Assembly (NCBI GenBank): GCA_963825865.1
Contig: CAWGVG010000015.1
Coordinates: 1-64,000 of the forward strand
Length of the DNA: 64,000 nt
Source: an uncultured Nitrososphaeraceae archaeon
GTDB taxonomy: Archaea > Thermoproteota > Nitrososphaeria > Nitrososphaerales > Nitrososphaeraceae
Direction of reading: 5' to 3'
Shown: positions 35,340 through 64,000 of the stretch, one piece after another
Numbering within the stretch: position 1 is the stretch's first letter
How the letters are laid out: each line of letters begins with the position of its first letter
The notes under the pieces: generated by a model
What the model was told of the DNA's origin: nothing
The model's input: the letters and a program-made list of their open reading frames with translations, nothing else
Databases searched by the model: none
Position numbers and translations under genes: made by a program

Positions 35340-35543
35340 TTGTCAAAGAAAATTCAGATGCCAGGATCTGCACGCACAGGATTGGCATTGTTGTTTGTAG
35401 GAGCAATATTTGTAGGAATAGGAACTTATCTAAATAGAGGAGCACTTTCACTTTACGGACTGATTATGGTTATTGGAGGCTTTTCGTTATATATGATTTC
35501 TTCGTTTGTTGTTACAAGAAAGAGAAATAGGAGAAAAAAATAA
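35340..35543 (+). CDS. small two-TM membrane protein
   Basis: Two hydrophobic helices, basic tail. Confidence 0.6.
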   Translation: MSKKIQMPGSARTGLALLFVGAIFVGIGTYLNRGALSLYGLIMVIGGFSLYMISSFVVTRKRNRRKK

Positions 35544-36136: not shown

Positions 36137-37340
36137 ATGAAACACAAACGGGTAAAATTAAGTATTTCAATAGCAGTTGTTATATTTTTAACAGGGTTAT
36201 CAAGTGTATTTATTGGAGCAGCAAAAGCACAACAACCACAACAGCCGTCCCAAAGACAATTGTCAATCTCAGAAAACTTGCCTTCATCATCCTCTTCTTC
36301 TCTTACAAAAATATTCAATCAAGTAGAAAATTCTGTAGTTCAGGTTATAAGTACTATTGAATCAGGCAATAATTCAAATCTGCGTATCATCATAAATGGT
36401 AATCCTATAACGCGAAACCAAACTGCATTAGGTTCTGGATTTGTATATGATAAGCAAGGGCATATTGTGACTAACAACCATGTAGTATCTAATGCCAGTA
36501 AGGTAGATGTAACATTTGTGGATGGAAACACATATTCAGCCAAGGTGGTAGGAAAAAATCCTTATAGTGACCTTGCAGTATTACAACTAACCGATAACTT
36601 CTCAGATGAAAGAGTCATTCCTCTTATAATTGCAAACTCATCTCAGTTGCAGGTAGGACAACAGGCAATAGCTATTGGTAACCCATTTGGTCTTAGCGCT
36701 TCTATGACAACAGGTATTGTAAGCCAAATAGGTCGCTTGTTGCCAACTGTGGATACACCTTACTCTATTCCAAATGGTATTCAAACCGATGCTGCAATGA
36801 ATCCTGGTAATTCAGGGGGCCCATTGATTAATATGCAAGGAGAGGTTATTGGGATGAATATTGCAATTATTTCTTCTAGCGGAGTTAATTCAGGAGTAGG
36901 CCTTGCTATTCCTTCTAATACTATTACAAGAGAAGTACCATCGCTAATACAAAATGGAACTTTTATTCATACCTGGATTGGATTTATAGGCGGTAAAATA
37001 ACTCCAGATTTAGCAAAACGATCAGGTTTGCCGCCAAATTATAGAGGTGTGATGGTAGTCTGCAATTCAAGCTGACAGCCCTGCGGCTAAGGCTGGTTTG
37101 AAAGGATTGAGCAATGAAACTACTAATGCTAATGGTGTTGCACGTTTAGGTGATATCATAATAGCAGTTGATAGTCATCCTGTCAGACAAATAGATAATA
37201 TCATAAATTACATTGATTCTCTTTCTCCAGGGGATAATGTAAAGCTGACAGTAAATAGAGGTGGCAAGATAATGGATTTGACTGCAATTCTACAGCCACG
37301 TCCAGCATCGGAGGCAGCATCCTTACCACCGCCACAATAA
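36137..37340 (+). CDS. HtrA/DegP-like serine protease with PDZ (frameshift at ~37060)
   Basis: GSGF, TNNHVV, DLAVL, QTDAAMNPGNSGGPL; PDZ part GDIIIAVD. Confidence 0.92.
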
Positions 37341-37445
37341 TCACCCCAACACCAACAAGATGGATAATAGAAATCAGTCTCTTGGCTACTGGCTTATTAT
37401 TATTAAAGCAGGCATTCATTTGCTTTAATTCTGCTTTTTCCAGCC

Positions 37446-37497
37446 AATTGGTCAATCAATCATAACAGTTGGTCAACTTTGAATGTTAGTTGGTCAG
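37446..37497. promoter_or_regulatory. three TTGGTCA boxes at exact 21-bp spacing upstream of integrase
   Basis: TTGGTCA at 37448, 37469, 37490. Confidence 0.6.
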
Positions 37498-37616
37498 GAG
37501 CTAGATAGCCGTAAGTAATTAATTATAACCTTTTACGTATCATTATCAATAGTTATGTATACTTTCAGGAAACATTATTAACCTATCCTTTATATGCAAA
37601 GGAAGGATCACAACAT

Positions 37617-39148
37617 ATGCAAAAAATAAAAAATACAGCTATAACAGCAGCAGCATCAACATCAAAGGTTAAAGATCTTGAAATAGAAAAAGAAATAGAA
37701 AACAGGAAGATTGCTTTAGCAACTGAAGGTTTTACTTCTAACATACACAGCTATGGTGCAGCCCTGTTAAAAGATAGATCCCGGTTATCCAGAGAGAATG
37801 CATTGACGATATGTGATTATATAATTGCAATGAAAAGGGAAATTAATCCCCGACTTAACACTATAAGGACTACAATTCAATTTCTGTCAGAACTGTCTAA
37901 GACTGTTGGAATAGATAAGAAGTTTAATGATATGATGGCAACAAATGAAGACATTTTACTATATTTAGACAGTTGCAGAAAACCAGAGAATGATGATCCT
38001 CTTCACAAATGGATTGGGACTTTTAACACAAAACGTATTATTTTATTTAGGTTCTTCAGATGGCTGCAGTATCCTGATGTTGCAAATCCTGATAAAAGAA
38101 ATGAGTTATCTGCAGCAGAAAGGAAACCTGAATGCATAATGGATATTCCAAAGCTAAAAAGAAAAGAAGTTAGTTGTTACAAACCTTCAGATATTTGGAC
38201 ACAGGAAGACGATTTACTATTTTTGAAATGGGTTACAAGCAAACGTGATAGATGCTATCATACAATGTCTAGAGACCTGTCAGCACGTCCTCACGAGATT
38301 TTAAACCTGAAAATAAAAGATGTTGTATTCAAAACTGTAGACACAAAGCAATATGCAGAAGTCCTAGTTAATGGTAAGACTGGGAGCAGGCATATCCCAT
38401 TAATACAATCCATTCCATACATCAAGGATTGGTTATCAAATCACCCAAGCAGGAATAACCCAAAGTCTCCTCTTTTTGTAAGTGTGGGTAAGAGAAGTAT
38501 GGGTAGAAAACAACTTACACGTATGGGATTATACAAGATATATAATGACTATAAACATGTATTTTTTCCCAAGTTATTAGAGATCCAACTATATCAAATG
38601 AAGATAAGGAGAATATCAAAGCCTTACTTGCAAAGCCATTTAACCCATACATAAGAAGACATTCAGCATTAACAGAGAAATCAACTAAACTAAAATCCAG
38701 TATATTGAACCAGCATGCAGGTTGGACCATGAATAGCAGTATGGCACAAAAATATCTGCATTATTATGGTAACGAATCAAGTGAATCATTATTAGAAGCA
38801 TACGGCATTGTTACAAAAGACAATATCCCAATTGACAGATTAAACCCCAAGATATGCCATAACTGTAACGAAGGTAATACTGCAGATAGTAAATTCTGTT
38901 CAAAATGTAAAATGATAATGAGCTATGAAGGATATCAGGAAGTACTAGAATCACAGAAGCAGAAGGAAGACGAATTAAAGACAATCAAAGACCAGCAAGC
39001 AGTAATGAATGACATGCTTACAAAGTTAGTTACAGGTCTATCTAATACTACCGATCAAAACCACCTTAACACACTAGCTCAATCATTAGCTGCATCAGGA
39101 ATATTGAAACCTAAGACGATTAATAATGATAAGGATAAAGAAAGGTAA
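37617..39148 (+). CDS. tyrosine recombinase/integrase with C-terminal zinc ribbon (frameshift at ~38585)
   Basis: SARPHEILNLKIKD, KTGSR, NPYIRRHSALT (shifted frame), HAGW, KYLHY, CHNC..CSKC. Confidence 0.92.
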
Positions 39149-40229: not shown

Positions 40230-42727
40230 ATGGTAGCAGAAGCAGATTTCCATGATTTTGAAGTTCCTCAAAAACTAAAGGAGCAGAATGTAAAAAGAAT
40301 AGCAAAAGAAGGATCTACAATTCTGGTTCAAATGGATGGTAAAACAGTAAGGTTCGATATTGAACGTGATAAATGTCAAAAGACAATGACAAACTTTGAG
40401 AAGCAGTTAAAATTACTGGGAATAATCAATAAGGATTTCTTAAAAGAGCAAGTCATACTAATCTTAAGTGAACATTGGCCAAATATTATGAATGGTAAAT
40501 CTTCTGGTGGTAATGGTCATCAAGGACAGCAACAGCAGGATCAGGAGAAGCAACAACAACAAGAAGAAGAAGAAAATGGAATACCTGCTAAAGAGGTGTC
40601 CATATCTGAAGCATTACGAATGCATTCGGGTTATGTCAAAGTTAAGGACGGTATGATTTCAGGTTCTAGAAAATTGGAGAAGATGTCAGTTAATACGTTT
40701 TTTGTATGTGATTCATGTAAAATGATAAACAAAATAAGCACTTATTCACGTCCAAAATTTGCATTTGAAATAAATAAGTTAGAACATTCTAATAATACTA
40801 GAAAATGTGCCAACTGTTCTGTAAACACTATACCTACTGAGTATGATAACGATGTAAGAAATGCCATAAAAATAGAATTACAGGATGTAAAGACTTTTAG
40901 TGATTTAGAAAGACTACCAGCAGTACTTTTTGACGACTGTACTATTAACGTTGGTGTTGGTGAACAGGTTGCAGTTACAGGTCGAATTTATAAAATAAGA
41001 ATGAATAACAGTATGGTCCCATTCTTATTTGTAGATACGATTGAATATGAAAATAGAGAAGAGCTGTCTGAAGAACCTACTGATGAAGACATTTTAAAAA
41101 TCAAATCTATAATAAGTAAGGCCAGAGAGGAAAAAATTAGCCCAATTGATATACTGGTTAAAATGTTTGCTTCAACTATTATTGGATATGAATTTGTAAA
41201 GAAAGGATTACTTATCTGTGCTGCAAATACAGGTAAGGATTCTGTAGATAAAAGGCTTAGAATTAATGCATTACTAATTGGAGAAACAGGACTTGACAAA
41301 TCACCATTACTCAGGGCAGTAACCAAATTAGCAGCAAAAAGTAGGTATTGTTCAGCATTAAATTCTTCGATTAGAAGTCTTATTGGTATTGTAGAAAAGG
41401 AAGATGATAATCTTATGTTACGTTTAGGTCCAGTTACCTCTTCTAGTGGTGCTATCTGTGCCATTGACGAAATAGGCCGAATGCAATATGAGGATCAAGG
41501 ACAATTACTGAATGCATTACAAGAAGGTAAAATACCATTTGCCAAACATGGGTTTAACACAGTATTGGATGGTTCTGCTACTTATATCATGTCTGCAAAT
41601 CCAACCCACGACGGCACTTGGAGATATGAGAATAAGATAGAACGTGATGAAATACCTTTGCTGGGACCGTTCCTTGATAGAAATGATTTAGTATTTATAT
41701 TTAGGACTAACCGAATTAAATCAGAAATAATAAAATATGCATTTGATAAGGCCGATATATCAGAAGCAACTTATGCAGAGGAAGAAAAGAATCTTAAATT
41801 ACTAAGAACGTTAACATTCTATATTGTAAAAGGTTCAAACCTTCTTTATCTCATGAAGCTAAAAATATACTTATCCAGTTTTATGCTAGTGTAGCAACAC
41901 ATACAGGTTCTCCTAGATTATTTGATACAATCAGAAATATAGCATATGCTATTGCTAGGTTGAAACAAAAAGATATTATCGAAGTAGAAGATGCTAGTGA
42001 TGCTGTACAATTCTATAATGTTATACTACAACAGTTAGAGGAGATAGTTGTAGTAACAAAAGATCCTAGAGAGTTGGTAATAGAAGAAATCATAAAGATT
42101 CTGAATGGTTCAAAATACCAATTTGAATTTATCGAATTAATGAGAGACGTCTGTAATAGAAATGAGTTTGTTTCTAGATATTTTGGTAATGATTTCCATG
42201 TAGATACTAATAAAAAACTAAGAATGCTTCGAGATAGATTTGTCAAAGGAGGAGTAGATAATAGAATATTGATAGTTAGTTTATCACCATTGGTGTTAGC
42301 TTGGAAGTCTTCTTATGATAGTGATGATAAGGCTAAGGCTAAGGCTAAGGATGATAGTAAGACTGATATCCTAACTGACCAAACTGACCAAACTGACCAA
42401 ACTGACCTACCACTTTTTGACAGATCCCACGAAAATAATGTTATATCCGATGATAATAGTTCTAGTAAAATTGATAGTAATATCCACGATACTGATAAAA
42501 ATGACGATAATAATGATGACCCCTTGAAAAAAGCTCAGGTCAGTCAGGTCAGTCAGGTCAGTCAGACAGGCACTTCAGAAAATACGACTAGTAGAAAGTT
42601 CAAGTGTTTTTACTGTGACTTTTATCTAAGCAATGACGATGAACGTGTAAATCACATAAAGTCAGATCATAACGGCAAACTATCATGGCCGACTCAAGAG
42701 GACTTTAAGAATCGGATGGAGAGATGA
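40230..42727 (+). CDS. mcm: MGE-type MCM helicase with C-terminal C2H2 finger (frameshifts at ~41810-41880)
   Basis: Zn finger CDSC..CANC, IELQD, INALLIGETGLDKS (Walker A variant), CAIDEIG (Walker B), SANP, LDRND, SPRLF..AIARLK; tail KFKCFYC..H...H. Confidence 0.88.
42374..42562. repeat. inverted pair of 9-bp tandem repeat blocks
   Basis: (ACTGACCAA)x3+ACTGACCT at 42374-42408 facing (CAGGTCAGT)x3 at 42536-42562. Confidence 0.9.
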
Positions 42728-43778
42728 TGAATCTAGACGATGGATTAGATTTTATCCTCTCCCATTTTCCAAAAGATACACTATGGCCTAGGAAGATATC
42801 CACAAAGGCAACCGATAACCACCAAAGGTTAGTTTATAGTAAAGAGGAAGCACTTGCATGGTTTAAACTGCGTAACTATCTGGATTGCAGGATTAGTGCT
42901 TATCCACCCGTTGATGCTAGTCCTACTCACCATCGATCTTATTATAATAATGATAGACTTGGACCAGTCTAGGTTCAAGTCACGTCTAGCATTAGACAGA
43001 GCATTAGCTAGGACTTTAGATAAGATCAAAGATACATTTGATCTAGTAGTAGAAGAAAAAGAACAACCAGTGTACTGTATTATGGAACCGGAAACGGTTA
43101 TCATATCTATATCCCAATTGAGTCAAGATATGACTAGAAAGAAGGTCAGAGTTTACCAGATATACACAGGAACCATCTAAACACTTCCTACGGTTTGCAG
43201 AGCAATACCTATCAAATGGAAAAGCCGATCCTGAGCATTACAAAACTGTGTCATTTAAGAACTGCATGCTAAGGGTTCCGGGATTTATTAATTCGAAATG
43301 TGGTCAGCAGGTTAGAATTGTAAACAGATGGAATAATAACAATAACAGCAGAGCACCAATATTTTTACTTCTTGGCAGTTTTCTAGCCTACCTAGTAGAT
43401 CAAAATTCATCTAGTAGACGAATGTCATCAACATCAACATCATATACTAATAATAATAATAATAATAATAAAATCACTTGGATAGAATCACTTTTACAAT
43501 CACCGATATTATTATCAGATGGTAGAAAATACTGTTTATGGAGAATATTAGCACCCTATCTTATCAACATAAGAAGGTTGTCATATGAGCAATCATTTAA
43601 CATTATAATAGAATGGTTAGACAAGTGCAACCAGATAGAGAGAAGATTAGACTTTAACCCAAAGACAAAGCTAAAGGAAACACTTGCAAATGTAGGAAGT
43701 TATTACCCGATTAGCCTAGAGAAGTTAAAGCAAGACAATAATGAATTGTATCAAAAAATGATAGTGGAGCAAAGATAA
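42724..43778 (+). CDS. archaeo-eukaryotic primase fused to PriX-like domain (frameshifted)
   Basis: WPRKIST, DCRISAYP, IMIDLD, GNGYHIY (shifted frame), NCMLRVPG; PriX-like DGRKYCLWRILAPYLINIR..EWLDKC. Confidence 0.8.
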
Positions 43779-44993: not shown

Positions 44994-45608
44994 ATGTCGT
45001 CAACAACAATACCAGCATCAGTATTATCCACACTAACAGAGGAAGAACAAAAGAAATATCAAGAGAGATTAGCTGATAAAAGTAAGCCGTATTATTATGG
45101 ATATGATATCGAAAAAGATGCAAATGTAATTGTATATCCAGTCTCGAATGTCGATGAAGGTAAATCAATTACTCTTGATATAGCAAGAGGCAGAGGATTA
45201 CAGCTATATCCAAAAAGGAATATTCAGATAATGAACAAAATAAGAGGCATGGTAGTTGGAATGGGAGGATGTGGTCCTATAGATTCGATCCCCGGTGGTA
45301 TAAAGCAGCTTACAGAAGCTAATAGTGATGAGTTTACTATTAACTACATACTTGAAGACTTAGAAAAAGAAAAGAAGGTAGTCAAGGTATATGATTACAA
45401 GTTAGTTGGACCAGCATGGAATACACCAGACTGGGAGAAACCTCATAGAGAGTATGATCCTATTAAATTCAAATGGTATACGATAGAAAAAGCTGAAGTT
45501 GATGGTGTCCTTGAGATAAAGTGCAGGTATTGTAGTAAAAAGTTTCCTTCAGAACATGACATGAAAAAGCATTTCAACAATAGCCATACCCCACGACGTA
45601 GGGTATAG
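44994..45608 (+). CDS. C2H2 zinc-finger protein, module copy 1
   Basis: CRYCSKKF..HFNNSH; highly similar to 53735-54205. Confidence 0.8.
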   Translation: MSSTTIPASVLSTLTEEEQKKYQERLADKSKPYYYGYDIEKDANVIVYPVSNVDEGKSITLDIARGRGLQLYPKRNIQIMNKIRGMVVGMGGCGPIDSIPGGIKQLTEANSDEFTINYILEDLEKEKKVVKVYDYKLVGPAWNTPDWEKPHREYDPIKFKWYTIEKAEVDGVLEIKCRYCSKKFPSEHDMKKHFNNSHTPRRRV

Positions 45609-45700
45609 TAGTAGTAGTATTATTAGTAGTGCTACTACTATCAGAGCATAAAGAATAAAGCTTTCCTTCATCATTATATAATTTGAGATAATAATCAAAA

Positions 45701-46173
45701 ATGATTGATAGTAATAATATGGCTGAAATGATGAAGGACATCTCAATTTATAATTTGGACCCATATAGGAAGATGGTGAAAAATACTAAAACCGGAGCAT
45801 ACATTATTTGCAATAATTCAACTAATGAAGTGGAAAGTAAAGGAGTGATAAATCCTAATCCTAATCCTCCTCCTGCTCCTGCCTTGAGTACCAGCATCAA
45901 AAAGGTTCTGAGCAAAATAATATTGTTGATAACAGCTTTGCTCTAGAGATGTATGGACTAGTGAATCTATGTTCGGGTAAAACAAGTACTTATGAAGATA
46001 TTCAAACTAACTATATGTCTGCTTATCCTTCTTCTCATCAACAACGTCAATATTTGAAGGGTTCACATCAGCAACAGAGAAATAATAACGTCAATAATAA
46101 TATACTGGCAATAGAGCTGTACGAACAGCTTGTTAACCAGTTTATCGGAGGAGGTAATCATAATGGCTGGTAA
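45701..46173 (+). CDS. Q/N-rich hypothetical protein, module copy 1 (frameshifted)
   Basis: RKMVK..YIICN, ALEMYGLVN, AYP..QYLK, AIELYE..GGGN.NGW; collinear with 54308-54733. Confidence 0.75.
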
Positions 46174-49198: not shown

Positions 49199-49376
49199 GA
49201 AGGAATGAATGAAGAGGGAGAAATAATAACAAGAAGTTGACTTGCTAATAACATCTTCATTTTACTATCAGGATAATAGTAATAATATGATATGATATTA
49301 TAGTAATGGTAAGCAGAACCAGCTCACTACTATTATATTATTATTATCAATATTGCTATTATCCTGCTGTCTCTTC
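49199..49376 (+). repeat. structured long-hairpin repeat, copy 2
   Basis: GAAGGAATGAATGAAGAGGGA / AACAAGAAGTTGACTTGCT / CAGGATAATAGTAATA ... TATTGCTATTATCCTG..TCTCTTC. Confidence 0.8.
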
Positions 49377-52300
49377 GAAAAGAGACAGGACACAAGTAAG
49401 AAAGCAATTTTTACATGGAGTAAATACGAGAAAGAAATTCCCAGCATAGATGAAATAAACAACTGGTTTAACTCTCAAATGGTAACGATGATCTGTAAAA
49501 ATAACATTGCCATAGTAACGGGCATCATATCCAGACTTTTAGTAATTGACATAGATGGTGAAGAATGCATAAAGCTATTTTATGAGATGGTTCAAAACAG
49601 GTTATCGGATAACTTACAACGTGAGATTGTCAATACACTAGCTGTTAGAACTGGTAGTGGGGAGGGTTTACAGATATATCTCAGATTCAACATTGAGGAA
49701 AAAGAAAACCCTCCAAACTTTTTCTTTACCCCCACCACTTGAACATAAAGAAATTAGAATAAAATGTAATGGTAGTTATGTAATAGGCTTGAACTCAAAA
49801 ACTAAAAATGAATATAAACTCAATTCTGAGGAGAAGAAACTAATTGTATTATTTTCCAAAAAAGAGATTAATGAATTACTTAGGGCTTTAGAACATATTA
49901 AGACTACTACTACTAGTAATGATGGTAATACTGGTAATAGGTACTACTAATAATAGTAAAAATGAACAAACCATCAAATTAGATGTAATCGAAATAGACA
50001 GGAACACAATCGTTAAAGGATTGTTATTCTAAAGGAAGGAGAGATGACATTGTATTTGCATTATCTGGATATTTACATAGAAGATACATAGATTAGCAAT
50101 CTACCATTGAAATTGTAAATTCTCTAATAACTCTATCAGAAGAGGGAAATGATGAAGAGTATAATTCTAGATTAAATGTAGTTCGTAGGACATACAAAAA
50201 GGATAGAAATAGTGATGAAAGTTACTGGACATAAATACTTACTATCAACGTTATCATCTATTTTAGATAAGGATGAAGTTAGAGCAAAACAAATTCTGCA
50301 TTCTGAGATAAATTCAGTAATAAATAAGGCATTAAAAGATGCTGGTTTTTCTTTTAGAATTGTTGATAATAATAATAACAACAATGATGACGATCCACAA
50401 GAAGAGGAAGAAAAAAAGTCAGCAGAAGAAAACAAACTCACTAAAGAACAGATTGATTTTGTCATAAATACAATGAAAAAGGAAGAGCATATGATGAACT
50501 ATCAATAAAACAGTTATTTTATGGAATGGATACTGCTTTTACTAAACGTCCTGCTTCTCATAATGTCAATTCAAAGATTCTGGGTTCAGGTAAAAATTAT
50601 TTGATGGAGTTAGTTTCTAACTATTTTCCCGAAAAGTATGTTATAAACATAAACCACATGTCAGACAAGGCAATTTTTCACAGAGAAGGAATTATGGTTA
50701 GAGAAAATCATGAAACTGGCAAACTTGAACCAATAAGACCTATAATAAAAAACCTTGAATCTAAGATTGAAGACTTACAAGAGCAAATTGAAACTGAAAG
50801 GCAAAAAAATAACAACCCTCCTACAGAAGAAAGTAGAAAACTGATTAAGGATAACAAAAAAAGAATTCAGGAAATCAATGAAGAGATTAAGGATATAGAA
50901 CAACATGCATTAAAGCAAATTGACCTTAACAATCAGATAATTCTCTGCCTCGATACACCACAAGAATCAATATATAATTCATTAATGAGCTTAGTCAGTC
51001 AGGATACTAAAAGAGGACAGAAGTATGAATTTGTAGAAAAATCAGGAATCTGGTAAACTAGGTACAGAAAATAATGTATTAATTGGTACTCCATTTATAT
51101 GCACCAGTCAGGTAATAGATGATACAAAAGGGGAACGTTTCCAAGAAAAGAATAGAAGGTTTACCAATGTAAACCCTGATACAAGTGATAAAAAAATTGG
51201 TACTGCAAATGATATAATTGTATTGCAAGGTGGCTACCTACCAGAAGAGTATGACGAACTGGTAGTAAGTAGATCAGATAAGGAAAAAGCCAGAAATATA
51301 GTCAAAATCATCGTAGCCAAGTTAAAGTAGCATACAAAGCACTTAGGCCCAAAAGAACACGGCATAAAGATTCCATTTGCTCTATCAATATCAGCATGTA
51401 TACCAACGACTCATGTTTGGAGTATGACGGTCACAGATAGAATAATGAAAATATCTTGCTATAATCACAAAAGTAAATATGGATTCAAGGCCAAAACTGC
51501 TAGACGTAAACACAGGTAAATTTTATCCTATATCTACGTACGTGGACTTTAAGGAAACTTTGAATTTAATGCAAGTTGCTGCTAGTGGTGTTAGGCCTTA
51601 CCTTGTAGACTGGTTCAATAATAGATTTCTTTCTGTATACAATGATTTAGGAGGAAAGCCAGATAAGATATACAATGATGATATAGGTAAATACGTAACT
51701 GTATCAAAGGAAAAACGTGCTGGACTTACAACCAAACAGATAGCAGATAGAATTGGAGAAAAGTTTGGAGGGTTAAAACTAAGCACTAAGGAATGTTATG
51801 AAAAAGAACCTAATACCTCTAATTAATCTGGGAATAATAGACCATATCGAAAGTGAGATAAGGAGAAATCAGCATATCTATTTTCCGGTCCAAGAAGATA
51901 CCCATCTATTCCATATTTTTGATTAAAAAGCTGGCCTAAAACTAAAAATACCAAGTCTTGAAAGATTTCCTAGTAAGAATTTTCTGAAATCACAATTTGG
52001 AATCTTGTCAAAGTCATCGTTTTTGGGGGGTGATATTTTTGAAAAAAATATTTCTTCATATAAGTTGGTAGATGTTGATGGGTCAGAGATTACAATAGAC
52101 CAATTGATAGAAAAATACTTTACAAATCCCGAAGAATGCTTTGTTAAAACATACAAAGAAGATTGAAGATAACACTAGCAATAAACAAGATAATAATGGT
52201 AATGGTAATGGTAGCACCTTAGAGACTTTGTTAAAATTAAAAGCAAGGCTACCAGCAATATACTATATCAAAGTCAGATTTTGATGAAACAAAAAAATAA

Positions 52301-53734: not shown

Positions 53735-54205
53735 GTGTTTGCTAAAATTTGCAGAGACAGATACGGTCTTAATGAGGCAAGAGGAAGAGGACTACAGCTA
53801 TATCCAAAGAGAAACGTCCACATAATGAACAAGATTAGAAGCATGGTAGTTGGAATGGGTGGGAGTGGTCCTATAGATTCTATCCCCGGTGGTATAAAGC
53901 AATTTACAGAAGCTAATAGTGACGAATTCACCTGTAATTATATTCTTGAAGATCTGGAGAAGGAAGGAAGTGTAGTAAAAGTATATCCTGTTATTAAGAC
54001 TGGTCCCGGTGATCCAAGAGATAATAGCTATTTTGGTCATCCTGTAAAGGAATATTCAAAGACTGGTTACAAGTGGTATACTCTACAACGAGCTGAAGCC
54101 GATGGTGTTCTTGAGTTACGTTGTCGGTATTGTTCTAAAGTATTCAAGACTGATAAGGAAAGGACTAAGCATTTCAACAATAGCCATACCCCACGTAGGG
54201 TATAG
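53735..54205 (+). CDS. C2H2 zinc-finger protein, module copy 2
   Basis: ARGRGLQLYPKRN..SIPGGIKQ.TEANSDEF..CRYCSK..HFNNSHTPRRV. Confidence 0.8.
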   Translation: MFAKICRDRYGLNEARGRGLQLYPKRNVHIMNKIRSMVVGMGGSGPIDSIPGGIKQFTEANSDEFTCNYILEDLEKEGSVVKVYPVIKTGPGDPRDNSYFGHPVKEYSKTGYKWYTLQRAEADGVLELRCRYCSKVFKTDKERTKHFNNSHTPRRV

Positions 54206-54307
54206 TAGTATTATTAGTAGTAGTAGTACTGCTGCTGATATCATAGCATAAAAGATAAAACAAACTATCTTCATTATATAATTTGAGATAATAATCAAAA
54301 ATGATCG

Positions 54308-54733
54308 TTGGCAGATATCTTGAAAAATATAAGTGTGCAAGATCTAGGGGAAGGAAGGAAGATGGTGAAGCACACGAACGGCAGTTATATAATATGCAAT
54401 GGGAACCAGATCGAGCAAAGAGGTTTTGTAAATCCTGATCCTCCTGCTGCTACTCAGTACCAACAACAGCAACATCAATTGCAAAAAGCTACAATTCAAC
54501 GTAATAATAGCAATGCCCTAGAGATGTATGGATTAGTAAATAAGATAACTGGTAGATCGGACATTTACGATAATATTGAAACTATGACTACTGCTGCTTA
54601 CCCTCATCAAGGTCAATATCTAAAAGCATCAGAACAGCAACAAAGAAGTAATAATAATAATAGAAATGCAATCGAGATGTATGAAATGATTCAAAGCTTG
54701 TTCGGAGGAGGTAATAACATCAATGGCTGGTAG
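54308..54733 (+). CDS. Q/N-rich hypothetical protein, module copy 2
   Basis: Intact 141-aa paralogue of 45701-46173. Confidence 0.8.
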   Translation: MADILKNISVQDLGEGRKMVKHTNGSYIICNGNQIEQRGFVNPDPPAATQYQQQQHQLQKATIQRNNSNALEMYGLVNKITGRSDIYDNIETMTTAAYPHQGQYLKASEQQQRSNNNNRNAIEMYEMIQSLFGGGNNINGW

Positions 54734-54866: not shown

Positions 54867-55356
54867 AAAGTTAGTTAGTTAGCTCGTGTATTATATAATT
54901 ATATAATAATAATAATAATTATAATATGATATCAACAAGAACGAAAAAACAGGATAAAGATAAACAAAATAATAAAGAAGCTATTGTTATAGCAGCAATG
55001 CGAGCAAAAGAAATTATGGGAAAAATACTTTTCTACCGACAATCCTATGATTAAATTTGAATGCTTGAGTAAGCTCCACGATCTCACATTAGACTTAGTA
55101 AACCTACAATATAGTGCTTACATGCAGAATTATAATTTTGATCATATCAAGAAATCTTCATCACCATTGAAGAGAGGTTATAAGCTTTCTAATTCACCTA
55201 ATACTAGGATGATACTAAGCAGGTTTATCAATAATAATGATGAGGATCTTCGATAACTATTAACACTATTCGTGTTAATAATAGCACGATTTATCAACAC
55301 TTTTAGCTACTAATATCATAATAGTAATAATAATAACGACAGAAGGAAGAAAGAAA

Positions 55357-55905
55357 ATGTCAAAGCTAACAAAAGAGCAACGTGAGGAACTAAAACATCT
55401 GGTACTAAATGGTATTGTCCATCATTTTACAATGTCTGAAATCCAGCAGTATATACTACAGAGCAAGCTAAAGACACAAATCAGTATTGACTATATCAAG
55501 CATCTGAAACTAGAATTAAAAAAGGATTCAAAGAAAGAATTAGATTATCTAGCTAAAGACAGATTTGCTTATACCCATTCTATATTCTTTGAACGACTTG
55601 AAGAGCTAAAATCATATCAAAGGACTCTGCATAATATAGTTTTGAACAATCAAGATAAACCAGAAGCACAGGTTAAGGCAATATCTGAGTTGAAGGATAT
55701 CACATTAGAGATTGTAAACTTGTATCAAATGTTACCTGTTATAGTAAGCAATCCTGGAGTACATGTAACTACTGTAGTAGATGATAATAATATTAATATT
55801 AATAATAATAATAATTACTCTACAAGAACAACAACAGCAACAATAAAACAACATCCAGACGGCTGCAACTGTACTGAGTGCTATGATCCAGAAGCAAAAT
55901 TCTAA
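55357..55905 (+). CDS. HTH/helical protein with C-terminal HxxxCxCxxC
   Basis: N-terminal HTH-like region, helical bundle QVKAISELKDIT, tail HPDGCNCTEC. Confidence 0.65.
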   Translation: MSKLTKEQREELKHLVLNGIVHHFTMSEIQQYILQSKLKTQISIDYIKHLKLELKKDSKKELDYLAKDRFAYTHSIFFERLEELKSYQRTLHNIVLNNQDKPEAQVKAISELKDITLEIVNLYQMLPVIVSNPGVHVTTVVDDNNININNNNNYSTRTTTATIKQHPDGCNCTECYDPEAKF

Positions 55906-55923
55906 CAGCAAGAATAAAAGGAG

Positions 55924-55952
55924 ATACAGTATAAAAGGGGATTATACTGTAT
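55924..55952. terminator. perfect 11-bp inverted repeat at CRISPR trailer (terminator or recombination site)
   Basis: ATACAGTATAA-aagggga-TTATACTGTAT followed by a T-run. Confidence 0.55.
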
Positions 55953-55956
55953 TTTT

Positions 55957-56316
55957 ATGTCAATCCTACCATAGTTCGATTCAAACAAGGCTCAAACGTG
56001 CCTGGTACTGCTGACTTATATCCCTTTCAATCCTACCATAGTTCGATTCAAACGTTCCTATCTGTACTAGTCCCTGGTGTTCCTGCTTCCTTTCAATCCT
56101 ACCATAGTTCGATTCAAACTCTTTTTTGTAAATAATCTGGGAAACCTGTTATTTCCTTTCAATCCTACCATAGTTCGATTCAAACATAACAGCAGATATT
56201 CTAAACGTTCATTATGCTTTCTTTCAATCCTACCATAGTTCGATTCAAACTTTCTGCTGTTGTAATGCCTGCTCCTGTTCTATGATCTTTCAATCCTACC
56301 ATAGTTCGATTCAAAC
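55957..56316 (-). CRISPR. CRISPR array: 6 x 30-bp repeats, 5 spacers of 35-37 bp; no cas genes in window
   Basis: CTTTCAATCCTACCATAGTTCGATTCAAAC at 56024, 56090, 56156, 56221, 56287; degenerate ATGT- copy at 55957. Minus strand reads GTTTGAATCGAACTATGGTAGGATTGAAAG with a class-1-like ATTGAAAG 3' handle. Confidence 0.97.
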
Positions 56317-56450
56317 TCCCTACTAATACATCCTAAATACACCCTTTATCTATAAACTTTCAGGGTCAACCTCCGATAATGCATTCTCTTTATAAATGCT
56401 AACCATTTTCAGAGGCATAATAAAAATTATATAATGAAGGAGGATTTAAA
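56317..56450 (-). promoter_or_regulatory. putative CRISPR leader
   Basis: AT-rich non-coding stretch on the side opposite the degenerate repeat; contains GTCAACCTCC and TTTATAAA boxes. Confidence 0.65.
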
Positions 56451-56485
56451 AAGTCTACACCTCTTAATGCTGGATTGAGGTTAAG

Positions 56486-56779
56486 ATGTCATCTCCAACC
56501 CCTAATCTAATCGAATGGCCAGCCCTTTACCTTATTGCCCAAGTTATAGGGTTTATAGTAGCAATAATAGTGATATTAAAAGTTACACATGATATTACCA
56601 AGAAGCTTACCAGTATAGAAAAAGATGTTGAATATCTCAAAAATACCGTAGAAAAACATACAGAAAAACTAGAAGAATTCACGTATACATATAAGGCAGA
56701 CATATTAGTCAGGCAAGCTCTAGATAAAGCTGAAGAAAAGAAAAAGAAAGAAAGAGAAGGAGAAAAGAAGAAAGAATGA
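56486..56779 (+). CDS. TM + coiled-coil small protein
   Basis: One TM helix then heptads; overlaps the next ORF (ATGA). Confidence 0.65.
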   Translation: MSSPTPNLIEWPALYLIAQVIGFIVAIIVILKVTHDITKKLTSIEKDVEYLKNTVEKHTEKLEEFTYTYKADILVRQALDKAEEKKKKEREGEKKKE

Positions 56780-57039
56780 GCAGTATTCCAATAGACTACA
56801 GTAATGAGAAGATGGATTATTTAATGAAGAAGATGTATCTTCATATGCTGACAAAAGAGGAAGCAAGGGAACTTATGCTATTGGTAGAAAAGGAAAAACA
56901 AAAAGCAGTAAAGTATGATGACAAGGAATACCAAGAAATTTTGTCTGGTTTACTGGACTCATTGAAGATGTATATGGCAGGAAAAATTAATCTTTATGAG
57001 AGCAGTATTGTTGATAGGTTGAAAGTTTCAAACGTCTAG
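56776..57039 (+). CDS. small helical hypothetical protein
   Basis: Translationally coupled to 56486-56779. Confidence 0.6.
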   Translation: MSSIPIDYSNEKMDYLMKKMYLHMLTKEEARELMLLVEKEKQKAVKYDDKEYQEILSGLLDSLKMYMAGKINLYESSIVDRLKVSNV

Positions 57040-57152
57040 TAATCGGTTATCATTAATGTATATCATGTTTATCATCAAGCAATCCATTATCACCGAGAAA
57101 CAAAGAAAAAGAAATAATTAATTATTACTTGTCTCTATTATTGTGATTCGAA

Positions 57153-57458
57153 ATGACAAATAATAATAATAATAATAATAATATAATAATCGTCGATGTT
57201 ACAGTTGCAGACAACCAGATTCGAGCATTGAAACCAAAAGATGAATATCAAACTATGTTAATGCCAAATACTGATACTGAAAAATTATTATGGTGGAATT
57301 CTGTAGATCCAGGTAGGCTTAACAATCGTCTCTATGGCACCTTGAAAGGCCAAGCATTGAAGAAAGCACAGAAATTAGTTGATTCTCAAGGATCAATTTC
57401 TACGAGTGGAGAATATGGCAGTATAGAAATTTCAGAAGAAGATTTTATTCCACTTTAA
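57153..57458 (+). CDS. hypothetical protein
   Basis: ATG-start 101-aa ORF. Confidence 0.5.
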   Translation: MTNNNNNNNNIIIVDVTVADNQIRALKPKDEYQTMLMPNTDTEKLLWWNSVDPGRLNNRLYGTLKGQALKKAQKLVDSQGSISTSGEYGSIEISEEDFIPL

Positions 57459-57639
57459 AGTAAAAAATAAAGAATAAGAAAAATATAATATAATATAATA
57501 TAATGTCTAAATAAAATATCAATCAAAGTATAATTATAACTTGCCTCTCAAAGTATAATTATAATTTACACCATATAGGATAAACGTAAATCAATCAGTC
57601 TTTTGCTTCAAAATATAGAGGGGGTTATACTGTATTTTT

Positions 57640-57780
57640 ATGTCAATCCTACCATAGTTCGATTCAAACTAATTAGTGCACTTACCTCTACATTCAAGAC
57701 ATCTGACTTTCAATCCTACAATAGTTCCATTCAAACGTTTGAGTCAGCCCTAATGCTATTTCTATATGTAATTCCTTTCA
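57640..57780 (-). CRISPR. second, truncated mini CRISPR array (2 repeats + 6-nt stub, 2 spacers)
   Basis: Repeat 57640-57669 (same ATGT- degenerate form), 37-bp spacer, repeat 57707-57736 (2 mismatches), 38-bp spacer, CTTTCA stub at 57775-57780. Confidence 0.88.
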
Positions 57781-57828
57781 CTTGATAAACAAAGAAATAA
57801 TTCCTTATTACTATTATAGCCTAGAGGA

Positions 57829-58752
57829 ATGAGCCATATTACTGAAGAACCGTTTTCAAACGAACTTTTCTCTGCAAGGGTACTTCCAACTCTTTTACTG
57901 ATTGTTATGCCATTTGCTTGGGGAATAATATTGCCATATCTTTTTCCAATTTTTCATTTTCACCAGAGCATAGTTATACCAACAATAGGCAAGCACCCAG
58001 TAGTTCCATTCGATTATCTTACTATTGTCATTGTCTTTCCTCCGGGACTTCTTTTTTTCATGTTTTATTATCATTATCGTTTAGCCTTTGCTGACAACTA
58101 TTTTGAAAAAAGAGGTTACCAAATTGCAATTAACGAATATGATTACATAAATAAAGTTCTATATATTGAAGTTGTGCTAATAATTATCTTAACACTTCTT
58201 TTTTATACTCTTCCTCCATCCATGAAAGAAGGCTATTTATCTCCATTACTAGGAGATGGATTTTATTTCCTACAGGCAACATTAATTATTACTGTATACA
58301 ACACGTTCTTTACTTTGAGCTTTTCATATGGTCAAAGAGATTTTAGATTTGAATTTGCAAAAGCCTGTATGAATGTCATTGAAAATAAGAAAGATGAAGT
58401 TAATAAAATCTATTACTTAATGCTAGGATTAGACTCATACAACAAATTCCTCAAAAGAAATATAAAACTTCAGTTTGATGATACAATGGTTTGTTCAAAA
58501 ATAATCTCATCATCTGAGAAAAATCAATCACTTAATTTGATAACTGCATCCTTTAAAGATAATGATAAATTAAAACCAGTTAGTTGCCTATCTAATATTA
58601 TAAAACTTCCTGATAAGGGACAATTTTTGGTAAAAAAACCATTAAAGGGTAAGATAAAAGATGCTGTAACAATTCTAACGGCTATAATTCCTATAGTAAT
58701 TTCGATACTTCAGTTGATGTTTCCAAAATATTTTCAAATGCTACTCAAGTAA
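57829..58752 (+). CDS. multi-pass membrane protein (cargo)
   Basis: About five TM helices, DFRFEFAKAC, GLDSYNKFLKRNIKL; intact 307 aa. Confidence 0.75.
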   Translation: MSHITEEPFSNELFSARVLPTLLLIVMPFAWGIILPYLFPIFHFHQSIVIPTIGKHPVVPFDYLTIVIVFPPGLLFFMFYYHYRLAFADNYFEKRGYQIAINEYDYINKVLYIEVVLIIILTLLFYTLPPSMKEGYLSPLLGDGFYFLQATLIITVYNTFFTLSFSYGQRDFRFEFAKACMNVIENKKDEVNKIYYLMLGLDSYNKFLKRNIKLQFDDTMVCSKIISSSEKNQSLNLITASFKDNDKLKPVSCLSNIIKLPDKGQFLVKKPLKGKIKDAVTILTAIIPIVISILQLMFPKYFQMLLK

Positions 58753-59207: not shown

Positions 59208-60927
59208 TTGGCAACCTCAGCAGCATGCCAGTATAAAAATGAATTTTATGTTGACTTTACATGTGACCAACCCACCAGAGACACAGAAAGCAAATTCTGT
59301 ATATTTCATGATACAAATTATCTTAAAGACGATAACTATGATAAACACAAGGAAGAAGTAACAAAGAGATTTGAAGATAAACTATCAGAATATTCTTCCA
59401 AAAACATGCCTTTGAAATTTATAGGCTATTGTTTGCCAGAGATTTCATTTAAAGATGAGAAATTTAGTGAAGAGATTCACTTTAATGAAGCCACGTTTTC
59501 TGGAGTAGCAAACTTTGATGGAGCTACATTCTCCAAAAAAGCTCACTTTGATGGAGCTAAATTCTCCGAAGAAGCATACTTTAGTTATGCTACATTCTCC
59601 AAACCAGCTCACTTTTCTGGAGCTAAATTCTCCGAAGAAGCAAACTTTTCTGTAACCAAATTCTACGAAGAAGCAAACTTTTCTGTAACCAAATTCTACG
59701 AAGAAGCAAACTTTTCTGGAGCTACATTCTCCAAACATGCATACTTTTATAGAGCTACATTCTCCAAACGAGCAGACTTTTATGGAGCTACATTCTCCAA
59801 ACCAGCAGACTTTTCTGGAGCTACATTCTCCATAGCCGAGTTTGAAAAGGTCAGGTTCGTAGAGATAGCCAACTTTGATGAAGCTGAATTCAAGGTAGCA
59901 GAATTCACTGAAGTTACATTTTCTAAAGAAGCTAATTTCATTTATGCTAAATTTTCAAACTTAGATTTTTCTCACACTAAATTCTTAAATGAAGTTCGTT
60001 TTTCAGAAGAAAAAAAAATAAAAATTTTTGATGGTGAAACTTTATTCAGATACACAATTTTTGAGCAGCCCAACAAGGCTATATTTGATACAAATGATTT
60101 ATCCAGGGTATCATTTGCTGGTAGTGACATATCTAAGGTAACTTTTACAGATAAAGTAAGGTGGGGTGGAGATGACGGTCTGAAGGTGATTGAAGAAGAA
60201 TGGTTAGAAAAATTAGGAAAGGAAAAGAAGCTAGAAAGTGAACACGAACAAGAAAATGAAATCAAACGAATAAGCTTGGACCTTGTATTATATGTATATC
60301 GTAGGTTAAGAGAGAACTATGAGTTCAAACTCAAATTTGACGAAGCAGGTAAATTCTTTATAAAAGAAATGGAATTAAAAAGAAAGTACAGAGAAGCTCC
60401 TTCACTATCTGCTGTTTTCAAACGTAAATTAATTAAATTCCTTAAGAAATTAAAACTTGTAAATGCTAATGTACAAGAGCCAAAGATTGAATATGTTCTT
60501 AAACAAAATGGAAGACTCAGAAGACATTTCTCGTTAACTGGTTTGTATTATCATCTTTCTACTTATGGTGAAAGCATAGTTAAACCAACTATAATTGGTG
60601 CAATAACGGTTGGACTTTCAACATTGTTTTGGCTACTTCAAAATAATCCAACAGTCGAACCTTCTATTTCTTTTATTGCTAATAATAAATTACATATGGC
60701 TAAAACAGACTTCTGATTTCATTAATGCTACTCAGATTTGGAACAATACACATACATTGAAGGCTTTTGAAAGAAGTCTTGCAGATTTTCTCCCTTTGCT
60801 TTCATTACCAGGTGATATCAAAGTAGGAGTAATAGATTATGTTATCAAAATAGTAGGTGGTGCTCTTACTTTCGGTCTTCTTCTAATAGCTTTGAGAAGG
60901 AAATTTGAAAGAAAATATACACGTTAA
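59208..60927 (+). CDS. pentapeptide-repeat protein with C-terminal membrane region (frameshift ~60670)
   Basis: N-terminal C..C..CIFH, many A.F..A.F repeats, YRRLRENYE, AGKFFIKEMELKR, YGES, IALRRKFERK. Confidence 0.9.
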
Positions 60928-61533: not shown

Positions 61534-61725
61534 GAAGGAAGATAAGTCAGGTCTTTGAAGAAAATATAATTTTATAATATTTATAATAATTATATAAAAA
61601 TCATATAATTAAATTATATAAAAATTATATTCTTGGAATATTAGTGATTTTAGTACTAAAGATAACTTCTTTAGTAGCAGTAATAACATAATGTTTCCTA
61701 TAGGCTTACATATTCAATAGATATG

Positions 61726-64000
61726 TTATTTGATATAAATTGCAGGTTTGAATGGTCTAGCAGACTTTGCTTTTAATCCAAGATCACGGTTTTCTGGTAA
61801 ATCATCTTCTTCATTCCCTTCCTCTCCTCTTGCTTCCTCCTGATAGACAGTTATGTGAGCCTGAGAATTTCCACTTTCCAAAGACAATAACATTCTAGCA
61901 TCATTTATAGGAAATATTTCATCAAAGTTTGCTGCCTAGTTTCAGTCTTCTGTTTCTTGCTTCAATTGGAGATGATAGAATGTCTTCTATTATTTTTCTT
62001 ATCAAGTTTGGATTAGTCTTTGCCTTTGTAGCTGTTTCTCGATCCTTGACTAGTTGTTTCATAATGTCTCCAAAGTTAGTTTTGCTTTCCAATAACATAG
62101 TTGCAAGAATCTTTTGATAGATTTGCAGTTTCCAACGCGCTGAAGTATAAATGACTATTTTTGTAGGAGTTATGCTAGTAACTTTGACAATCTTTTGTAG
62201 ATCGGATATCAAATTCATAATTAGCTCTTCTGATTCTTCTGCTACTGGATCGTTTTTATCTTCATCTACTATTGGCCAGCCGGCGAAAATAATAGAAGTT
62301 GTTGCTGATGATGAGGATGATGATGATAAGGATAAATTATCCGTACTGCCACCAATTTTTTCCCATACTTCTTCACTTATAAATGGCGCAAATGGAGCGA
62401 GCATCCTTATGCGAGCATCAAGAAACAAAGACAAGGTAGCGGCAATAATATATTCTCGTCTTTTGGCTTTGACTCTCTTCTTGTACCACTGCAAGTCTTG
62501 ATCAAGTGAATATAGTATAAGGTGTAATGCTTCTCTCGCTCTTAATTTCTCCATAGATATTGTAGTATTTGCAATAGTGTGCTGCAATTTGCTGATAAGC
62601 CATCTGTCTTCTAATTCCATTATTGTTTTTGGGACTTGTGTTGGTGTCTCTGCTTTTGGCTTAGTCTGATCCTGCTCTTTCTTCTTAATCGAGTACTCTA
62701 TTGCCATATCATAAATATCACATAGCTTGGACTGAATTCCCTTAACTGCATCAAATGAAAAATCAGCATCCTGTAAAAGCTCTGCTGAGGTCAGTATGGC
62801 CACACGAATTGCGTCAGCACTATGCTCTTTGATAGCAGCACGCAATGGAATAATATTTCCAAGCGATTTTGACATTTTTTTTCCTTCCATTAACACAGAT
62901 CCATTGACGACAATTTGCTTAGGCCAATTTTCCTCCTCAAAAATTGTTGAATGGTTAAAAATAAAAAATGACAAATGATTTGGAATTAAGTCTCTCCCAG
63001 AATGTCTAGCATCTACAGGATAAAAGTAGGAAAATTCGTTTCTTATCTGCTTAATTGATTCTGTAGAGATTTTGCAATCTGCAGCAACCTGCATGTTATC
63101 GCCCTTCCCCAATAGAATAAAATCAAAAAAAGAGTCCTTTAGATCATCAGTATTAATGATCGCATTATTAACATTACCATTAAGATACTTTGCAAGAATA
63201 TAGTACGCCATATAAATAACAGAGTCAGAGAGACTTTCGATAATCCACTCGTGATCCCAAGGTAATTTAGTACCAAGTCCTGATTTTCTTGCACATGCCC
63301 TCTCTCTTAACCAATCAATTACGTAGTTGAATTCCTGTCTAATTTCTTCTGGGACTATGATCATTGAGTTAATACATTTATGTGCTAAATCTTTCCATTT
63401 CTTATCACCATAATTTAGAAACCATTGATCATTCAACAGTTTAACCACACACTCAGTGCCACATCTGCATCTAACAGGTTTGTTTATCAGTTCAAACATT
63501 ATGTCAGCAGAACCAGTTGCAATAATTTCCTTCTTTATCTTTTCTTTTGCCTCATATACTGTCATACCTGCATACTTACCAGTATTTTGCGACATTTTTC
63601 CACTGTAAAATTCATAAGAGTATATCTCACTAGTGGCCTTTTCTAGTTGCGGATCCTGTTGATTCTTTATATTGAATTTCTTTATGATTTGCGCTGCAGG
63701 TATCATATTTTTATTATTATTAATGTCGCCAGAGTAGCTTTCTGATTCAATAATTGTTATAGGTTTTAGTTCTGCTACTTTTAACCGGAATTCATTATTG
63801 TTATTAATAGAAAGATCGTGTTTTAGATCTTCCAGAGCCTGATAATCATACGGGGCGTGTGCCGGAACAGACATTACAACTCCTGTGCCACTATCAGTAT
63901 CAACAAACAGTGCAGGATACAATGGAATTGAAACCTCTTTAATTGGGTCCTTAGCATATTTGCCGATTATTTCTTTTCCCTTTAAGGTAGACTCTATTGC
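61726..64000 (-). CDS. leuS: leucyl-tRNA synthetase, archaeal type (5' part outside window; frameshift at ~61930)
   Basis: GTGVVMSVPAHAPYD editing motif, GLGTKLPWD, IESLSDSVIY, SGRDLIPNHL, KMSKS; C-terminus SARPFKPAIYIK ends at 61726. Confidence 0.97.

Follow-up and report, generated by a model that had tools for sequence, protein, structure and literature searches.

Cas-less CRISPR arrays of a type I-B repeat family in an insertion of mobile DNA in an uncultured Nitrososphaeraceae archaeon

CRISPR arrays that lack cas genes of their own are known from archaeal mobile elements. Four integrated elements of Thaumarchaeota bear CRISPR arrays in the account of Krupovic et al. (2019, PMC6563490). 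Two of them, cryptic integrated elements, have full suites of type I-B cas genes, and the other two, which are conjugative, have stand-alone arrays with 69 and 96 spacers and repeats identical to those of a cas-linked host array; the spacers of one cas-bearing element match another provirus. The Sulfolobales portogloboviruses SPV1 and SPV2 are reported to carry mini-arrays of one or two spacers with host-like leaders, and in sibling viruses these mini-arrays occupy the same position, hold different spacers and target each other (Medvedeva et al. 2019, PMC6858448). Here we describe two small arrays without cas genes, array 1 (positions 55957–56316) and array 2 (57640–57780), in a 64,000-nt stretch of DNA from an uncultured Nitrososphaeraceae archaeon. 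This stretch, the window in what follows, is the first 64 kb of contig C15 (CAWGVG010000015.1) in a 4.98-Mb assembly of 62 contigs that is 81.8% complete (G000; GCA_963825865.1). We give roughly even odds (a probability of about 0.5) to the reading that integrated mobile DNA has here captured type I-B arrays, which require Cas proteins in trans, with array 1 intact but unarmed and array 2 a decayed sibling. What is new here is the assignment of the repeat to type I-B, the complete leader of array 1, the insertion as delimited by synteny, the lack of cas genes other than a Cas6 fragment in the assembly, and the negative results for spacer targets in the databases searched and for arrays on four paralogous elements of the genome.

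The window arrays share with the elements described by Krupovic et al. (2019) the host class, the setting of a cas-less array in integrated mobile DNA and a type I-B repeat family. In that account MCM-type cryptic integrated elements carry CRISPR loci, and the insertion that holds the window arrays also bears an MCM gene. However, the stand-alone arrays reported there have 69 and 96 spacers and ride conjugative elements, whereas the window arrays have five and two spacers and no conjugation genes were found on their carrier in the searches made. The reported arrays match a cas-linked host array, while the present assembly contains neither a cas-linked array nor a cas operon. Matches between spacers and a provirus are likewise part of that report, whereas no spacer target was found for the window arrays.

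The SPV1 and SPV2 mini-arrays, as described, resemble the window arrays in lacking cas genes, in having a promoter-bearing leader like those of cellular arrays, in comprising homologous arrays that occupy corresponding positions but differ in their spacers, which implies spacer turnover, and in the presence of leaderless stand-alone repeats alongside. By definition these mini-arrays have one or two spacers; array 2 has two and array 1 has five. The carriers differ as well, being viruses whose hosts have active Cas in the one case and an integrated, non-viral-looking region in a host without detectable Cas in the other. Reciprocal targeting between siblings, shown for SPV1 and SPV2, was not found for the window spacers. 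We regard the window arrays as another example of the known cas-less arrays on archaeal mobile elements. We do not claim a case of inter-element warfare, because a Cas-proficient matching host and spacer hits on related elements were both looked for here and not found.

Small repeat units of other kinds are also relevant. CRISPR repeat-like regulatory RNAs have been described, and both these and CreTA-type modules lie in or beside cas operons and have spacers that are partly complementary to a promoter. Array 2 and the units on contigs C42 and C46 described below resemble CreTA or cr-like units in being short, degenerate or truncated repeat-spacer-repeat units. Unlike such modules, the window arrays have no cas operon beside them, and their spacers gave no self-match of 18 nt or more above chance in the genome.

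Two homologous arrays and the leader of array 1

A 27-nt repeat core occurs eight times in the window (at most 3 mismatches), compared with zero occurrences expected from 100 shuffles. Array 1, on the minus strand, consists of six repeats of 30 nt, starting at 55957, 56024, 56090, 56156, 56221 and 56287, and five spacers of 35–37 nt (37, 36, 36, 35 and 36 nt). Its repeats, like those of array 2, are spaced 65–67 nt apart, giving the regular repeats (23–47 nt) and unique, similarly long spacers by which a CRISPR array is defined. The last five repeats are identical (0 mismatches across 150 nt). The terminal repeat (55957–55986) is degenerate and starts with ATG rather than CTT on the plus strand. 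Array 2, also on the minus strand, is leaderless and decayed. Its terminal repeat (57640–57669) is identical to the degenerate terminal repeat of array 1, its second repeat (57707–57736) has 2 mismatches in 30 nt, and its two spacers (57670–57706 and 57737–57774) are followed by a 6-nt stub of a third repeat, CTTTCA (57775–57780). The seven spacers are mutually unrelated, and none matches anything else in the genome.

Read on the minus strand, the functional orientation, the repeat is GTTTGAATCGAACTATGGTAGGATTGAAAG and ends in ATTGAAAG, a typical 8-nt 5'-handle sequence of archaeal type I and type III repeats. Because the minus-strand repeat ends in this way, the degenerate repeats mark the distal ends of the arrays. 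The trailer of array 1 (55936–55956, minus strand) forms, together with the terminal repeat, a 51-nt block (55936–55986) that is duplicated at 57619–57669, where it comprises the trailer (57619–57639, minus strand) and terminal repeat of array 2. The two 21-nt trailers have one mismatch, which is the only difference between the blocks (1 of 51 positions; 98% identity). Local alignment of the flanks of the two arrays found no similarity outside this block.

Much of this anatomy had been described in an original prediction made from the letters of the window without database searches. Its account of array 1 (six repeats, five spacers and a putative leader) was borne out, as was that of array 2, which it described as having the same trailer and degenerate terminal repeat, unrelated spacers and a cut after CTTTCA. 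It had also named the trailers correctly, since the minus-strand repeat places the degenerate repeats distally. The shared degenerate terminal repeat and trailer show, at the level of sequence comparison, that the two arrays are homologous by common ancestry, and their different spacers imply separate spacer histories in Cas-proficient backgrounds. The original prediction went further in deriving the arrays from independently evolved sibling elements. The homology and the separate spacer histories stand, but this is one of several origins for the two arrays. Tandem arrival of two related elements fits, and duplication followed by spacer turnover or deletion fits equally well.

An 11-bp hairpin (55924–55952; arms 55924–55934 and 55942–55952), followed by a U-rich run on the array transcript, extends into the trailer of array 1. 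It has a folding energy of -20.5 kcal/mol (z -3.5), none of 200 shuffles was equally stable, and it is a possible bidirectional terminator. The duplicated 51-nt block begins within the hairpin loop. The trailer of array 2 is without the second hairpin arm and does not form a hairpin. The repeat itself folds weakly (-4.3 kcal/mol, z -1.5), and no Rfam family matches positions 55000–58500. The trailer has no genome site besides the two in the window, and a 25-mer of it had no exact match in metagenome contigs.

The leader of array 1 (56317–56399, minus strand) contains a TATA-box element, GCATTTATAAAG (56388–56399), a conserved motif, ATCGGAGGTTGACCC (56363–56377), and a G-rich end beside the first repeat. 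The leader elements are found in the same order and spacing before the cas-linked arrays of four relatives (G138, G078, G031 and G003) and of a metagenome contig (L091), and they also precede a number of small arrays in relatives. Array 1 thus has both the TATA element and the GGAGGTTGACCC motif in common with the cas-linked leaders (alignment A1, in which the row for G122 had wrong coordinates and was disregarded). The end of cas2 in L091 and G138 falls a few bases at most from the TATA element. Since homology to the cas-linked loci starts exactly where cas2 would end, array 1 keeps its whole leader, and soil contigs match part of it (56339–56399). A promoter-bearing leader is thus predicted for array 1. 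Array 2 has no leader, and its stub is instead preceded by the promoter region of a plus-strand open reading frame (ORF) at 57829–58752.

Repeat family and cas genes in the assembly and its relatives

The assembly encodes archaeal AmoA, which identifies the organism as an ammonia-oxidising archaeon, and it is the sole member of its own genus in the genome collection. We compared it with 200 other genomes from the same archaeal family. The repeat family (at most 3 mismatches) is present in 48 of these relatives, including one unpublished genome (G076), and some hold 30–90 copies. In G138 and G078, a repeat with 1–2 mismatches lies directly beside complete I-B operons (cas6, cas8b, cas7, cas5, cas3, cas4 and cas1). 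In G031, a single-contig genome, an array lies beside cas6-cas7-cas5-cas3, with no Cas1 hit (L057, C1 ~1744800–1751600). The metagenome contig L091 carries cas1b, cas2, the leader and two repeats that are identical to the window repeat at 30 of 30 positions. This identical variant had no exact match among the sampled genomes or in the genome collection. By its similarity to these cas-linked repeats, the window repeat is assigned to a type I-B family.

As the original prediction had stated, there is no cas gene within the 64-kb window, and profile searches agree. Across the assembly, the Pfam models for Cas1, Cas6_C, DevR and RAMP gave no hits and the cas3_core model returned only sub-threshold helicases. 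When 14 Cas proteins of G138 and G078 were compared with the assembly by tblastn, the single match was a Cas6 fragment on contig C18; the Cas1 and Cas2 queries found no remnants. The fragment is N-terminal, 69 aa long (C18:51028–51240) and 59–64% identical to Cas6 of G138 and G078, and it lies ~15 bp from a repeat copy with 7 mismatches (C18:51028–51285). An HtrA-like protease gene adjoins it. A link between this cas6 remnant and the HtrA-like gene at the left end of the insertion described below was rejected because the protease family has at least eight paralogues in the genome.

A k-mer scan of the genome detected no further array, periodicity elsewhere being due to coding low-complexity repeats, and no copy of the CRISPR repeat lies at any contig end. 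The original prediction had looked to the same repeat beside a cas operon elsewhere in the genome and to Cas proteins borrowed from the host. Only the Cas6 fragment beside the 7-mismatch repeat on C18 answers to the former, and borrowing cannot work in this assembly, where that fragment alone is present. Because a truncated cas6 is the only cas trace in the assembly, we conclude that the host once had a I-B locus that is lost from the genome as assembled, although the missing 18% forbids a firm claim of absence.

Further repeats are scattered in the genome. Contig C42 holds a two-repeat unit (5025–5122), with an identical 8-nt sequence after each repeat, and a partial copy at 6109. Solitary repeats are found in intergenic regions between host genes at C44:35322–35351, where the neighbours are a transporter gene and a rhodanese gene, and at C46:55932–55961. 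The C46 repeat comes right after the cellular MCM gene, a position at which 19 of 19 relatives lack it.

Cas1 was found in 24 of the 200 relatives (22 over the curated cut-off) and DevR/Cas7 in 9. A Cas1 or DevR hit was obtained for 12 of the 48 repeat-bearing relatives and neither for 36, a count that overstates cas loss. The DevR model is insensitive, PF01905 failed to detect G179, where homologues of cas6, cas5 and cas3 flank the array, and fragmentation affects many of the genomes. Nevertheless, it is common in the lineage for this repeat family to occur as solitary repeats or in small arrays without cas genes. In G014, a cas1 gene broken by stops stands beside a two-repeat array with a leader (L056, C1 ~2297800–2299190), and in G079 a solitary repeat stands beside a 31-aa Cas7 fragment (L099, C160). 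Together, G014, G031 and G079 form a decay series of I-B loci in the family. The loci of G014 and G031 have the same repeat family and leader motifs as the window arrays. However, they lie in the chromosome beside cas genes or pseudogenes, whereas the window arrays lie in an insertion without a cas remnant.

The insertion of mobile DNA and its relatives

Both arrays lie in 26.2 kb of mobile DNA (~35554–61716) that is delimited by synteny and is probably composite. Synteny was examined in five relatives from five genera (G009, G010, G007, G002 and G003). DNA homology to these relatives extends no further than 35553 and does not return before 61717, and a homologue of the ORF at 35310–35540 lies 200–400 bp from the 3' end of LeuRS in all five. 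Because the flanking genes are adjacent in all five relatives and homology breaks off between them, we take the ~26.2 kb to be an insertion. No array or cas operon was found between the flanking host genes in these five genomes. The arrays are therefore on mobile DNA, as originally predicted, and a decayed chromosomal cas locus at this site, which the prediction had named as the contrary case, was not seen in any of the five.

The insertion encodes a tyrosine integrase (37617–38654, plus strand; weak Pfam hit, phrog_1 at 8.5e-8) with more than 20 paralogous hits genome-wide, an MCM-family replicative helicase (40230–41894, plus strand) with a paralogue on contig C62 that is 78–87% identical, and a PriX-like primase subunit (43248–43778, plus strand) with a homologue ~1 kb from a five-repeat array in G107. 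A Prim-Pol fragment (49353–49950, plus strand) represents a second replication module. The larger ORFs between 37.6 and 60.7 kb are mostly on the plus strand, and the GC content of the distal half of the insertion is 0.29–0.33, compared with 0.35 for the contig. The insertion also contains a diverged internal duplication (44994–46170 and 53735–54733) of two ORF pairs with 52–67% amino acid identity. The duplication and the two replication modules (MCM/PriX and Prim-Pol) suggest a composite insertion made up of two or more related elements. We recognised no virion genes in it, and neither the window nor the insertion contains a tRNA.

Genes next to the arrays also have relatives elsewhere in the genome. 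A 182-aa ORF of unassigned function (55357–55905, plus strand) ends 31 nt before the trailer of array 1 and has seven paralogous loci in the genome, one of which adjoins the MCM element on C62. Three small plus-strand ORFs lie between the arrays (56486–56779, 56776–57039 and 57153–57458), and paralogues of the third are found near integrase genes on C21. Other contigs thus hold paralogues of the ORFs adjoining the arrays (55357–55905 and 57153–57458) in the neighbourhood of MCM or integrase genes.

The original prediction held that this element family carries its own guide cassettes. However, four paralogous elements in the same genome (C62:178–194 kb, with the 78–87% identical MCM; C5:74–80 kb; C27:65–78 kb; C46:4–11 kb) have no repeat copy at up to 7 mismatches. 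In IMG/VR, no relatives of the MCM or the integrase were found (with single proteins and with alignments) and the repeat had zero matches; no relatives of the 182-aa ORF were found in genome contigs, and the genome collection yielded no relatives of the element. We also fetched the context of 21 loci in relatives, each a small array or a solitary repeat (L056, L057 and 19 others). Six lie beside cas genes or cas fragments, one (in G107) lies ~1 kb from the PriX-like gene homologous to that of the window, and the remaining 14 contexts have no homology to the window element. Linkage of the arrays to the element family is therefore not supported by our data and, with close relatives wanting, is not refutable either.

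In one soil run (X1), a 227-nt low-depth contig joins a near-identical 41-nt match to 55856–55896, at the 3' end of the 182-aa ORF, to a match to 57594–57647, comprising the array-2-specific flank, the trailer and the start of the repeat, via 55 other letters. This joint arrangement is absent from the window, and beyond its far side the contig is unlike the window. As one hint of linkage, this single low-depth contig suggests that an array-2-type cassette lies beside a gene of the same family elsewhere. Short parts of the locus (repeats, the leader motif and neighbouring ORFs) are held by four soil or rhizosphere runs, none of which covers the window spacers.

Several other features of the region should be noted. 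Upstream of the integrase gene, positions 37445–37500 contain three copies of an (A/G)TTGGTCA(A) motif, and a 38-nt stretch with two of the copies recurs with 89% identity at three other loci (twice on C21 and once on C4); it may be an element-specific binding site or an origin. At the distal end of the insertion, a gene for a 502-aa pentapeptide-repeat protein (59208–60716), with several paralogues in the genome, holds a 33/66-nt tandem repeat (59507–59832). An IS630-like transposase (HTH_32 plus DDE_3, in two ORFs) lies at 84–1102 of the window, and another DDE_3 fragment lies at 8080–8355. Several window genes are split into adjacent ORFs (3887–4598, 8491–9406, 13868–14801, 36137–37340 and 61717–61922), including an alpha/beta hydrolase, a luciferase-like oxidoreductase, a PHA-synthase-like gene and HtrA plus PDZ. 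LeuRS, at its C-terminal end in the window, seems to run on in another frame, and the cellular MCM gene (C46:53778–55864) is broken into three ORFs. The split genes suggest indel errors in the assembly, and for this reason split ORFs in this genome are weak evidence for pseudogenes.

Spacer targets and competing explanations

We searched for targets of all seven spacers. In the genome itself, blastn-short gave only self hits and alignments of at most 22 nt, in agreement with the earlier failure to see a self-target by eye, and no self-complementarity of 18 nt or more beyond chance was found. A blastn search of GenBank phages with 55900–57800 gave only chance hits at E = 0.6, none of them in a spacer. 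In the 200 family genomes, spacers 4 and 5, searched as one query together with their intervening repeat, had no credible target, although this was a weak test, with repeat hits flooding the results and only four candidates scored per genome; nor did the other five spacers, searched as 60–61-nt references. No spacer match was found in 0.87 Mb of fetched loci. The best matches were two, one of spacer 2 to a housekeeping region of G032 (24/36) and one of spacer 3 to G095 (23/36, including an exact core of 21 nt); both fall below the usual criterion of 70% over the full length and were rejected as partial and chance-like. As no spacer target was found, no protospacer-adjacent motif can be derived, and a role in competition between mobile elements would be an analogy with the described systems.

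In the reading to which we give about even odds, the two arrays, with a repeat family that is typical of this archaeal family, would be cargo of the ~26-kb integrated, probably composite, MCM/PrimPol-type mobile region. Array 1 is a complete cassette, with a promoter-bearing leader of ~83 nt, five identical repeats plus the degenerate terminal one, and a trailer with a hairpin. Its transcript would be read from the minus strand, and Cas6 would cut it into CRISPR RNAs (crRNAs) with the 5' handle ATTGAAAG, and these crRNAs would guide a I-B Cascade and Cas3. Because array 1 does not encode Cas6, Cascade or Cas3, it would act only with Cas supplied in trans, and because the assembly shows only a truncated cas6, it is most likely intact but unarmed. 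Array 1 would have been acquired fairly recently from a Cas-proficient background, and array 2 would be its homologous sibling, which has lost its leader and is decaying.

Several points weigh against this reading. We found neither attachment (att) sites nor element ends, since all direct repeats joining both ends are of low complexity, and together with the internal duplication this means that a single element is not established. With the assembly 81.8% complete and in 62 contigs, a cas operon could lie in the missing part, and frameshifts in essential genes (such as the MCM gene in three ORFs) limit the quality of the gene calls. There were no RNA runs among the listed runs that hold window sequence. 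No credible protospacer was found in the searches above, in which the spacers were not run against IMG/VR or bulk metagenomes. Finally, the perfect repeats of array 1 could reflect youth alone, with no need for selection.

That same incompleteness leaves room for arrays that are active now, with I-B Cas proteins encoded in the unassembled 18% or by a co-resident element and the guides directed against competing elements or viruses, which is the model of the original prediction. The intact leader and perfect repeats of array 1 fit such activity, as do the reports of virus-borne mini-arrays with host-like leaders that target sibling viruses (PMC6858448) and of thaumarchaeal integrated elements with stand-alone arrays, alongside a cas-bearing element whose spacers match another provirus (PMC6563490). 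We nevertheless consider it unlikely, as neither five family models nor 14 proteins of relatives detected a cas gene beyond the truncated cas6, no repeat lies at a contig end as expected of a collapsed array plus cas locus, and none of the seven spacers has a credible target in the genome, the 200 family genomes or GenBank phages. Array 2, being truncated, leaderless and mutated, would suit a different account, in which both arrays are pure relics, the debris of a mobile element that once had a full I-B module, as do the cryptic integrated elements with cas genes known from Thaumarchaeota, and lost its cas genes, with no present or conditional function. The proposal that cas loss gave rise to stand-alone arrays (PMC6563490) points the same way, as does the occurrence of decaying cas genes beside repeats in G014 (cas1 pseudogene), G079 (Cas7 fragment) and the present genome (Cas6 fragment). 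The 36 of 48 repeat-bearing relatives with neither a Cas1 nor a DevR hit can also be cited, but this number overstates cas loss, as discussed for G179. Array 1, however, is undecayed: it has 0 mismatches across 150 nt and an intact TATA element and leader motif, in contrast to the differences of 1/51 between the copies of the 51-nt block and 2/30 in the array 2 repeat. As the insertion also holds no cas remnant, we consider the relic account as unlikely as present activity.

In a non-immune role, the arrays would act as a decoy titrating Cas6 or Cascade in new hosts, recombine with host arrays as a substrate or give rise to cr-like regulatory RNAs. Solitary and stub-flanked repeats are indeed scattered in this genome (C42, C44 and C46) and in relatives, and stand-alone repeats on archaeal viruses and plasmids have been described (PMC6858448), as have repeat-like regulatory RNAs (10.1101/2023.03.03.530964). 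However, array 1 has the full anatomy of an ordinary array, neither array adjoins cas or toxin genes, partial self-complementarity was not found beyond chance at 18 nt or more, and the solitary repeat after the cellular MCM gene is present in 0 of 19 relatives, making such a role very improbable. We find it equally hard to credit that the arrays are a host CRISPR locus that decayed in the chromosome, was at no time part of mobile DNA and only later became surrounded by mobile genes. The failure to find att sites or element termini would allow it, and orphan small arrays do occur in non-mobile settings in this genome (on C44, and on C46 after the cellular MCM gene). Yet the flanking genes are adjacent in five of five relatives from five genera with no array or cas gene between them, paralogues of the ORFs that flank each array on either side occur in integrase or MCM loci, and the cas6 remnant is on another contig.

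For captured arrays in integrated mobile DNA, the present situation is unusual. Since the resident host appears to have lost its Cas machinery, the cassette would currently benefit neither party. A broader and more novel idea, which we think improbable, is that guides and effectors are separately mobile in this archaeal family. Leader-array cassettes of ~0.5 kb, extending from the end of cas2 to the hairpin trailer, would ride cas-less integrated elements and would be armed only upon meeting a cas-carrying element or a Cas-proficient host. The joint in the X1 contig and the homology of the two window arrays, confined to the terminal repeat and 21 nt and ending in the hairpin loop, would then be traces of cassettes moving between elements. 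Such mobility would also explain why the repeats occur in 48 of 200 relatives, compared with 24 for Cas1 and 9 for Cas7/DevR.

The single locus is a modest, well-documented example and falls short of a discovery. If array 1 is functional in trans, this soil ammonia-oxidiser would join the short list of archaea with cas-less arrays on mobile elements. The family counts are a more interesting lead than the locus itself. By these counts, the lineage appears to hold far more orphan repeats than cas loci, an imbalance that could reflect assembly gaps, frequent cas loss or mobile cas modules.

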